Part shown: positions 51,539 through 52,368 of the stretch, piece after piece
Numbering within the stretch: position 1 is the stretch's first letter
Layout of the letters: each line of letters opens with the position of its first letter
DNA from: Parachlamydiales bacterium
Lineage (GTDB): Bacteria; Chlamydiota; Chlamydiia; Chlamydiales; SM23-39
DNA length: 64,000 nucleotides
Reading direction: 5' to 3'
NCBI GenBank assembly: GCA_050302075.1
Contig: JBNLAH010000001.1
Coordinates: 164,157 to 228,156, forward strand
Position numbers and translations under genes: made by a program
Notes under the pieces: generated by a model
Databases searched by the model: none
Told to the model about the DNA's origin: nothing
The model's input: only the letters and a program-made list of their open reading frames with translations

Positions 51539-51919
51539 CTACCTACGGTACTTAGCTGTTTTTTTTGCAATTTTTTTTGGCTGTTTCACATATTGACGCC
51601 CAGATGCTGCTCCTTTTCTTTTGGCCAAGTTGGTTGCAGCTTTTTCTCCTGGTGTTAAAGCCTCGATTGCCTTTTTTGGTAAATAGCGACTTTTCTTGGG
51701 GGTGCCAGCATATTGCCAATCCTGGTCTGTCCACTTTTGTAAAGAGTTGTTTTTATCTTTTTGTCCAATATAGCCTCCACCTCTTTCTTTATAGACCTTG
51801 CTTGCGATCTGTGCTTTTCTAGCTGACCACTGTCCAGATTTTCCACCTTTAGAGGATGCTATCACTTCACTTTTAACTTTTTGCCACAATTTTGGGTTTG
51901 ACTTACGACTAATGCTCAT
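51539..51919 (-). CDS. Very basic protein resembling the virus-associated DUF5872-like family
   Basis: KGGKSGQWSARKAQ, YKERGGGY, SLQKWTDQDW, RYLPKKA, LTPGEKAATN; GAAGGAGG RBS. Confidence 0.8.
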   Translation of the reverse strand: MSISRKSNPKLWQKVKSEVIASSKGGKSGQWSARKAQIASKVYKERGGGYIGQKDKNNSLQKWTDQDWQYAGTPKKSRYLPKKAIEALTPGEKAATNLAKRKGAASGRQYVKQPKKIAKKTAKYRR

Positions 51920-51999
51920 ATTTAAACCTCCTTCAATTTAAAATTATCACATTGTCAATTAATTAAAATTGAAATAATAATTAATTAAGGGGGGAGATT

Positions 52000-52368
52000 A
52001 TGAGAACTACAGGAATTGATATTTCTAAATTAAAGAAAATTGGTTCGAAATATTTATATAGAAATAAGTTGTGGACTCTAAATAAAGCTTATAGATCTAC
52101 AGCAAAAGGGAAAAAGATGATGGTTTTAGCCACTAAAATCAAAGGTGGTAAGAAATTTGCAAAATTAATACATTTTGGAGCTGCTGGATATGGCCATAAT
52201 TATAGCAGCGAAGCTAAAAGAAGATATTTGGCTCGCAGCAAAAATATCCGAAACAAAGAAGGAAAGCTCACTAAAGATGATCCTTGGAGTGCAAACTATT
52301 GGGCTAGAAAAGTTCTTTGGCCAGCTAATAAACCTGCCACAGGTCCTAAAGGAAAGAAGGCAGCTTAA
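52000..52368 (+). CDS. Very basic protein resembling the phage/giant-virus DUF5754-like family
   Basis: RSTAKGKKMMV, KLIHFGAAGY, AKRRYLARS, DDPWSANYWARKVLW; GGGGGGAG RBS. Confidence 0.8.
   Translation: MRTTGIDISKLKKIGSKYLYRNKLWTLNKAYRSTAKGKKMMVLATKIKGGKKFAKLIHFGAAGYGHNYSSEAKRRYLARSKNIRNKEGKLTKDDPWSANYWARKVLWPANKPATGPKGKKAA

Follow-up and report, generated by a model that had tools for sequence, protein, structure and literature searches.

What function(s) could two small and strongly basic proteins of virus-like character perform on the chromosome of a chlamydial bacterium, and from where were they obtained? The genes that raise this question, P0001 (hereafter A) and P0002 (hereafter B), are located head to head in the window, i.e. 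the whole stretch of 64,000 nucleotides from a Parachlamydiales bacterium that was analysed (table 1).

Table 1. Features of the A/B locus and its surroundings; positions are those of the window.
Feature	Positions	Strand	Description
P0001 (A)	51539-51919	minus	126-aa basic DUF5872 protein
P0002 (B)	52000-52368	plus	122-aa basic Tlr6F/DUF5754-superfamily protein
Divergent intergenic spacer, 80 bp, A+T-rich	51920..51999		presumed bidirectional promoter region (inferred)
P0001 Shine-Dalgarno AAGGAGG	51927..51933	minus	sequence
P0002 purine-rich Shine-Dalgarno AAGGGGGGAG	51987..51996	plus	sequence
P0002 C-terminal KKAA	52354..52365	plus	candidate ClpXP (SsrA-like) degron
Conserved chromosomal block: 383-aa ORF, SH3 protein, 230-aa ORF, PhoH	42946..47641		context only

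The original prediction had described a head-to-head pair with strong ribosome-binding sites, an 80-bp AT-rich spacer and Lys plus Arg counts of 33/126 and 32/122; all of this was confirmed, and every one of the Trp-containing motifs quoted for the two proteins was found in the sequence. P0001 contains 33 Lys and Arg, 7 Asp and Glu and 4 Trp residues (pI 10.6), P0002 32, 5 and 4, respectively (pI 10.7). When the 1653 ORFs of at least 100 aa in the genome are ranked by net charge per residue, the two proteins take the second and third places and are outranked by a Lys-rich repeat protein alone; ORFs which we take to be ribosomal-protein-like rank below them. Both genes are single-copy in the genome (1.84 Mb, 96% complete), in which the window is part of contig C1; the source databases label the proteins of its relatives as Chlamydiota. 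The spacer is 79% A+T, AAGGAGG lies 7 nt ahead of the P0001 start and AAGGGGGGAG ahead of that of P0002, and the GC3 of the pair (0.33 and 0.24, compared with 0.21-0.31 in the neighbours) is host-like. The median dN/dS is 0.09 for chlamydial A (3 unsaturated of 55 pairs) and 0.13 for chlamydial B (75 unsaturated of 666 pairs). P0001 and P0002 are real genes under purifying selection. It is hardly credible that they are non-functional relics of a decayed prophage: their phage ancestry, discussed below, and a broken copy of A in one genome (G028) would agree with decay, whereas the intact frames, the strong Shine-Dalgarno sites, the host-like GC3, a dN/dS of about 0.1 with saturated synonymous sites and the head-to-head layout kept in four families all contradict it.

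One sigma70-like site is present in the spacer, which is not above chance (5 sites were found in the promoter scan and 6.6 were expected). The repeats detected in the spacer are short A+T-rich matches only, with no control run beside them, and inspection by eye of the sequences upstream of 13 A and 37 B genes revealed no motif in common. The neighbouring RRM (51011-51292) and DEAD helicase (49332-50762) genes were confirmed by Pfam. The predicted absence of a prophage near the pair was also supported: the Pfam scan identified no phage genes among 14 neighbouring proteins, Terminase_6N has no match anywhere in the 96% complete genome, and the neighbours are housekeeping genes or genes of no assigned role, with no phage structural, packaging or integrase genes among those scanned. 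Downstream of the pair, genes for DUF2254, ferric-reductase-like, zinc alcohol dehydrogenase and Hsp20 proteins form a cluster (55398-59516), which we take to be stress-island-like. Approximately 10 kb from the pair, another very basic ORF is located (62532-62684, plus strand, 50 aa, net charge 0.26 per residue); it has no match in PHROGs and is presumably comparable to small basic modules of phages and bacteria.

P0001 had been assigned to DUF5872 in the original prediction, and this label is borne out by full-length homology to PF19197-labelled proteins. Homology over the full length was found for 1246 of 1250 candidates, and the proteins labelled PF19197 share with P0001 both the family motifs and 95-100% of its length, at E 1e-33 or better. 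A direct scan of P0001 with PF19197 (DUF5872, gathering cut-off 27.5 bits) gave nothing, a precomputed PF19197 match is listed for it, and homologues that align with it over the full length at 51-61% identity reach 28-32 bits on the same model; in the ESM Atlas clusters nearest to P0001, PF19197 is present in 12-35% of members. DUF5872 occurs in phages, giant viruses, Alphaproteobacteria, Patescibacteria and fungi, and the median net charge per residue of A is 0.23 in chlamydial, 0.20 in viral and 0.07 in other bacterial copies. P0001 corresponds to phrog_17747 and phrog_14910 joined, and its sub-modules (approximately 7-51 and 53-126) are encoded by many phages as separate genes. Long relatives of A carry ART-PolyVal, GNAT, Nudix and RadC domains, and in bacteria and fungi A is fused to Rho_N and Hva1_TUDOR domains.

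According to PMC12220804, DUF5754 and Tlr6F are the same family. PMC4642659 describes Tlr6F as conserved in nearly all PLVs, virophages, many giant viruses and some phages and as lacking a known structure or function. On PF19058 (DUF5754) P0002 scores 17.1 bits (E 0.0057), which is below the cut-off of 27.4 and outside Pfam-defined membership; the predicted label DUF5754 nevertheless holds at the level of the superfamily. Among 573 candidates 541 are homologues of B. A P0002-relative profile finds the DUF5754 domains of P0285, P0288, P0307-P0309 and P0311 with E-values from 2.5e-6 to 6.9e-10, P0002 matches the phrog_220 profile at positions 503-613 (E 2.6e-24), and PF19058 is present in 12-20% of members of the Atlas clusters near P0002. 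The AlphaFold2 model of P0002 (pLDDT 91.5, pTM 0.82) consists of two beta-hairpins and two helices and has 12 matches in BFVD at E 0.001 or better, including iridovirus and marseillevirus proteins; virophage also matched. Judged by profile homology and by a predicted fold common to viral members, P0002 is in the Tlr6F superfamily in the wide sense. The strong viral representation that had been expected for both families is evident in the PHROG, Atlas and viral locus matches.

Neither protein has a match in NCBIfam, and the sequence search of solved structures gave nothing below E 0.4 for P0001 or P0002. The best Z obtained with the P0001 model (pLDDT 91.8, pTM 0.60) is 3.5 among 48,161 chains of solved structures; with the P0002 model no solved structure was found at Z 2 or more, and none by Foldseek at E 0.001. 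Such a weak or absent fold match is not proof of a new fold for either protein. The invariant residues of A are S32, Q37, Y43, G47, G48, W63, W68, Y79 and P81, none of them acidic. Across the broad B family the conserved positions are occupied by Gly, Trp, Lys, Arg, Ser/Thr and Tyr, never by an acidic residue or His. Most viral copies have other residues in place of His58 and His66. Because there is no family-wide acidic residue in A or B, binding fits better than metal catalysis.

The two families are linked to each other in viruses. B is present in 30 of the 80 viral loci fetched by A; after grouping at 85% identity it shares the A locus in 18 of 39 viral groups, in 12 of them within 500 nt and always co-directional. 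An adjacent pair from an isolated phage is gp97-gp98 of S-CRES1. Fusions also occur: a DUF5754 domain is carried by 6 of 74 long A relatives (a seventh, short match was discounted) and an A domain by 7 of 150 B relatives, one of them P0407, so that A and B are fused in 13 long proteins altogether. Since both families are found in phage gene clusters with numerous small basic members, adjacency and fusion may mean a shared destination rather than a complex.

The context of B in phages is that of head polyproteins. Of the nearest 150 B representatives, 84 are longer than 250 aa; Pfam gave no match for most of the 70 long B relatives scanned, and the others include 5 with portal and 6 with InPase domains, besides Nudix, kinase, SNF2 and DnaJ. 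In cyanophage CL131 the B module (46%) lies inside the 1393-aa portal-InPase-MuF protein ORF012, which is reported as detected in purified virions (PMC6293099), a detection that leaves the retention or cleavage of the B part undemonstrated. In Aeromonas phage 2L372X, B lies inside gp100, ahead of the XkdF protease domain, and the gene order is terminase-portal-protease-capsid; the P0002 model also matches ICP1 ORF125, which is named a putative capsid maturation protease in PMC8096241. The protease protein of 2L372X starts, by eye, with a ChaB-like stretch that is followed by the B domain, and a gene for a CapR-domain endonuclease is located between the portal and protease genes of this phage (L275:4595-5587). 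The short motifs K-x-A, R-x-D, R-x-N-P and F-G, which were picked after inspection, occur ahead of the domain in 44/67 long B relatives and 20/37 long A relatives, compared with 11-12% of background windows, and we infer that these boundaries could be cleaved by a protease. A few Tlr6F peptides, below threshold, are mentioned for purified PgVV particles (10.1101/2022.07.28.501842), and polyvalent proteins are said in PMC5512222 to be likely packaged in the capsid; our literature search found no virion proteome for A-carrying phages. Polyvalent proteins are multidomain and encoded by phages or conjugative elements, a description that applies to the relatives of P0001 and P0002 and not to these single-module chromosomal genes themselves.

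Outside the chlamydiae, B has its closest relatives (55-63% identity) in domains of long phage-type polyproteins, and the chlamydial B copies form one clade (95/91) with two or three unlabelled proteins, placed among polyprotein domains. The Pfam-DUF5754-type fusion domains, which are not host-assigned and were deemed giant-virus-like from their F-G joints, lie on very long branches away from the chlamydial B clade; in the tree test their grouping with chlamydial B was not rejected (p-AU 0.375). The B of G243 was acquired separately (p-AU 0.0002 against common origin). This copy (L278:4467-4826) is phage-type and located on an 862-kb chromosomal contig. Chlamydial A falls together with the patescibacterial copies in the tree (support 98), the patescibacterial group being drawn from labels and the tree, and a 9-residue linker is present in 12/12 chlamydial and 23/23 patescibacterial copies, in 0/54 viral and in 0/39 other bacterial ones. 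Considering this shared linker and the grouping, A may have passed between chlamydial and patescibacterial cells. The stand-alone DUF5872 genes of the chlamydial clade in Patescibacteria (L206-L274) are found in variable contexts and without B.

We consider it probable that A and B originate from phage head modules and were domesticated in chlamydiae, and a phage origin appears to fit better than a giant-virus origin. The other possible source is a giant or polinton-like virus in a shared protist, in which case the proteins could have a role in the host cell, e.g. as basic proteins delivered to the nucleus. CpV-BQ1 is listed in PMC12085832 with one member of each family, about 12 kb apart, and the BFVD matches in iridovirus, marseillevirus and virophage, the A+DUF5754 fusions and the grouping left standing by the tree test agree with such a source. 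It is nevertheless quite improbable, considering the very long branches of the DUF5754-type domains, the phage-type nature of the close B relatives, portal fusions included, and the patescibacterial affinity of A. The exchange with giant viruses via a protist host that had been proposed for the pair is weakened by these phage-type polyprotein relatives, and it retains the unrejected tree grouping in its favour.

The phylum sample yielded B in 47 of 400 genomes and A matches in 14 of 401; 11 of these matches are of the chlamydial A type. G039 (42%, grouping with other bacterial and fungal copies), G326 and G380 (30%, partial) were set aside as other A types, and all three are without B. The genome bin of G326 includes a phage contig (G326:C2, L194) with major head and portal genes. 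The 11 genomes from the sample together with G014, G019 and G443 form the set of 14 with chlamydial A; B is present in 14/14 of them, compared with 47/400 overall, a co-occurrence that is given without an overall probability because kin genomes are not independent. A and B are head to head in 7/14 genomes of four family codes, namely G000 (the window genome), G014, G019, G194, G195, G254 and G124 (~350 bp); in the remaining genomes the two genes are separated by 16 kb in one case and placed on separate contigs in six. The two genes thus co-occur elsewhere, as had been anticipated, both in chlamydiae and in viruses. The idea of a two-protein cassette as an obligate unit could not be upheld: most B carriers are without A (47 versus 14 in approximately 400 genomes). 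None of the 34 non-chlamydial A carriers yielded B, whereas both chlamydial controls were positive; these 34, for which completeness is not stated, comprise 9 Alphaproteobacteria and 25 small genomes, the latter mostly of Patescibacteria. A is broken in G028, and the A match of G200 contains stops. The frameshifted pseudogene of G028 (L008, G028:C32:8678-8990) lies beside phoH, with B intact on another contig.

Neighbour scoring covered 36/39 genomes (G018, G115 and G254 were dropped by the ORF filter) and identified A as the most frequent neighbour of B. The original prediction had placed the pair next to RRM and DEAD helicase genes, and a link to these was not upheld. A link to RRM, DEAD or fumarase genes was rejected, since not one of the other 35 genomes in this scoring has any of them within 1.5 kb of B; DEAD genes are present 8-10 kb from B in two genomes. 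With wider flanks, A or B lies within ~5 kb of the SH3-230 aa-phoH block in 8/35 other genomes (G028, G105, G111, G112, G194, G200, G208 and G359), which belong to three families, six of the eight to one. This recurrence, as in the window, points to an ancestral chromosomal site, and the phoH-block region is likely that site of A/B. The 383-aa ORF of the block is presumably RmuC-like. An NmrA-like NAD(P)-binding gene also recurs beside B (L125:1869-3314, with DUF2867; L176:10245-11132; L020:1107-1991), with a homologue on contig C6 of the window genome, and in G031 a ChaB gene is located 3 nt upstream of B (L018:1240-1476).

The identity of B across chlamydial families is 50-93%. B follows genera and not families, and comparison of B and RpoB identity in 29 genomes (Mantel rho 0.15, p 0.11) does not support strict vertical descent of chlamydial B. 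A block of 676 bp with 89% identity is shared between G012 and G225, which belong to two families (L175:8893-9559, L176:9828-10501); it holds B and part of the upstream NAD(P)-binding gene, and no transposase was seen. Mobility of this kind, together with the patchiness and the second capture in G243, resembles that of defence genes, and A and B could be conflict modules, i.e. polyvalent-type effectors injected by phages, whose chlamydial captures block head assembly or mobile DNA. The fusion partners (ART-PolyVal, InPase, Nudix, GNAT, RadC and kinase) are indeed those given as typical of polyvalent proteins in PMC5512222. We regard such a role as unlikely, because the proteins change slowly (50-93% identity between families, dN/dS about 0.1), no defence or mobile neighbours recur among the genomes scored, and neither A nor B has a catalytic signature.

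P0002 ends with KKAA, and a [KR]AA end is present in 39/120 close B homologues. An AA end is found in 13/37 genome B copies, compared with 5/1579 ORFs of the window genome and 2/113 with equally basic ends; it occurs in 4/150 B representatives, two of them within the chlamydial clade. The window genome has a tmRNA tag ending with FAAAA and encodes ClpX with the RKH loop; together with the terminal di-alanine of P0002, this ClpX provides the sequence characteristics of an SsrA-like signal. Recognition of terminal di-alanine by ClpX of C. trachomatis is reported in PMC9601184. The independently acquired B of G243 ends with RKKAA. On the B tree, the copies with an AA tail are scattered rather than grouped (9 changes; mean after shuffling 10.9), the tail is missing from two thirds of B copies, and KKAA is also a common unit in Lys/Ala-rich repeats. 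The ending suggests that -KKAA of P0002 may be a ClpXP degron.

What do these characteristics tell us about function? Our tentative prediction, which could well be wrong, is that A and B are capsid-internal phage modules domesticated as accessory nucleoid proteins of elementary bodies. In phages, the head protease would cut the modules from the polyprotein, and they would stay in the head as DNA counter-ions. Fixation of A and B near phoH could have taken place in an ancestor of several chlamydial families, with later loss, relocation and some exchange between families. Transcription from the shared spacer would supply both proteins at a late stage of the cycle, and they would bind DNA with hardly any sequence preference and coat and protect elementary-body DNA beside Hc1/Hc2; at nucleoid decondensation the -KKAA end would let ClpXP remove P0002. 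P0002 would be the core component and P0001 an optional partner. Since A and B are patchy (47/400 and 11/401) and being lost, they are not core development genes. No RNA records are listed that hold the locus of one relative.

The genome of the window encodes a short 78-aa Hc1 (PF07432; G000:C1:7524-7757, plus strand) and a 135-aa Lys/Ala/Thr repeat protein (G000:C4:63706-64110, minus strand), which we take to be Hc2-like, and the canonical histone-like set therefore appears to be present. Pfam detects no Hc1 (PF07432) or Hc2-type homology in P0001 or P0002. Hc1 is found in 31/38 B carriers and in 28/34 non-carriers, so replacement of Hc1 by B was rejected. According to PMC13317200, knock-down of both histone-like proteins does not stop nucleoid condensation, and additional nucleoid factors are suggested there; as A and B are not shown in C. 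trachomatis, they cannot be equated with these factors.

High basicity fits RNA equally well as DNA. A and B could bind RNA or ribosomes, as chaperones or hibernation-type proteins that protect translation in dormancy, the phage versions being injected onto host translation; their net charge and size are similar to those of ribosomal proteins, the conserved surface consists of Arg, Lys and aromatic residues, and the fusions of A to Rho_N and Hva1_TUDOR point in the same direction. However, the RRM and DEAD neighbours are not conserved, B is fused to head proteins that are packed with DNA, and no fold match to RNA-binding proteins was obtained, which makes this role rather unlikely.

A more far-reaching version of the nucleoid prediction, which we regard as doubtful, would extend it to viruses: Tlr6F and DUF5872 would act as partners that coat the genome inside the virion, with folds not yet described, in tailed phages as well as in polinton-like and giant viruses, the maturation protease freeing them from head polyproteins. 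Environmental chlamydiae would have domesticated the pair (B twice, independently), gaining for their virion-like elementary body a third chromatin system of viral derivation, and would have equipped it with a ClpXP degron that strips it off at infection.

Tlr6F/DUF5754 and DUF5872 were already catalogued, without function; what appears to be new, from the comparisons made here, is their placement in head polyproteins, their mutual linkage and the chlamydial copies. No link of Tlr6F to DUF5872, phage head polyproteins or chlamydiae was found in the literature covered by our search, for the most part open-access papers. Tlr6F is now placed in phage portal, MuF and prohead-protease polyproteins and is tied to DUF5872 by adjacency and fusion, and the small stand-alone bacterial copies, with confident models that have no solved match, make its function directly testable. 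If the nucleoid prediction is true, capsid-internal proteins would have been recruited for a virion-like dormant chlamydial cell, and environmental lineages would have a candidate regulated nucleoid factor besides Hc1/Hc2.

How do A and B compare with the systems already described? P0001 is the same as Pfam DUF5872 (PF19197) in full-length homology and in the GQWSARKAQ and RYLP motifs, whereas the chlamydial and patescibacterial copies differ from DUF5872 at large in the shortened 9-residue linker, absent from all 54 viral loci, and among the cellular carriers tested only the chlamydial copies co-occur with B. P0002 is a small basic protein that shares the motif skeleton K-x3-V...[HR]FG..G...R...S..YW...W with Tlr6F/DUF5754; it differs in an additional N-terminal hairpin and an insert common to phage polyprotein domains, and in being a bacterial chromosomal gene with a basic -KKAA tail. 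ChaB (PF06150), called a putative DNA-binding protein in baculoviruses (PMC6832367), is likewise a small module common to viruses and bacteria; in G031 its gene is directly upstream of B, and the B model has a match to a phage protein named ChaB, but the sequences are unrelated and the G031 ChaB has no match in the window genome. In the phage polyvalent proteins described in PMC5512222 and in portal/MuF fusions, A and B modules stand together with InPase, ART-PolyVal, Nudix, GNAT, portal and MuF domains, whereas the chlamydial proteins are single-domain, non-mobile and without a catalytic signature. Finally, A and B resemble HctA (Hc1, PF07432) and HctB (Hc2) in being small, very basic and Lys-rich chlamydial proteins for which a similar role is proposed; they are non-homologous to these, have folded Trp-containing domains, a patchy distribution and viral ancestry, and coexist with Hc1.
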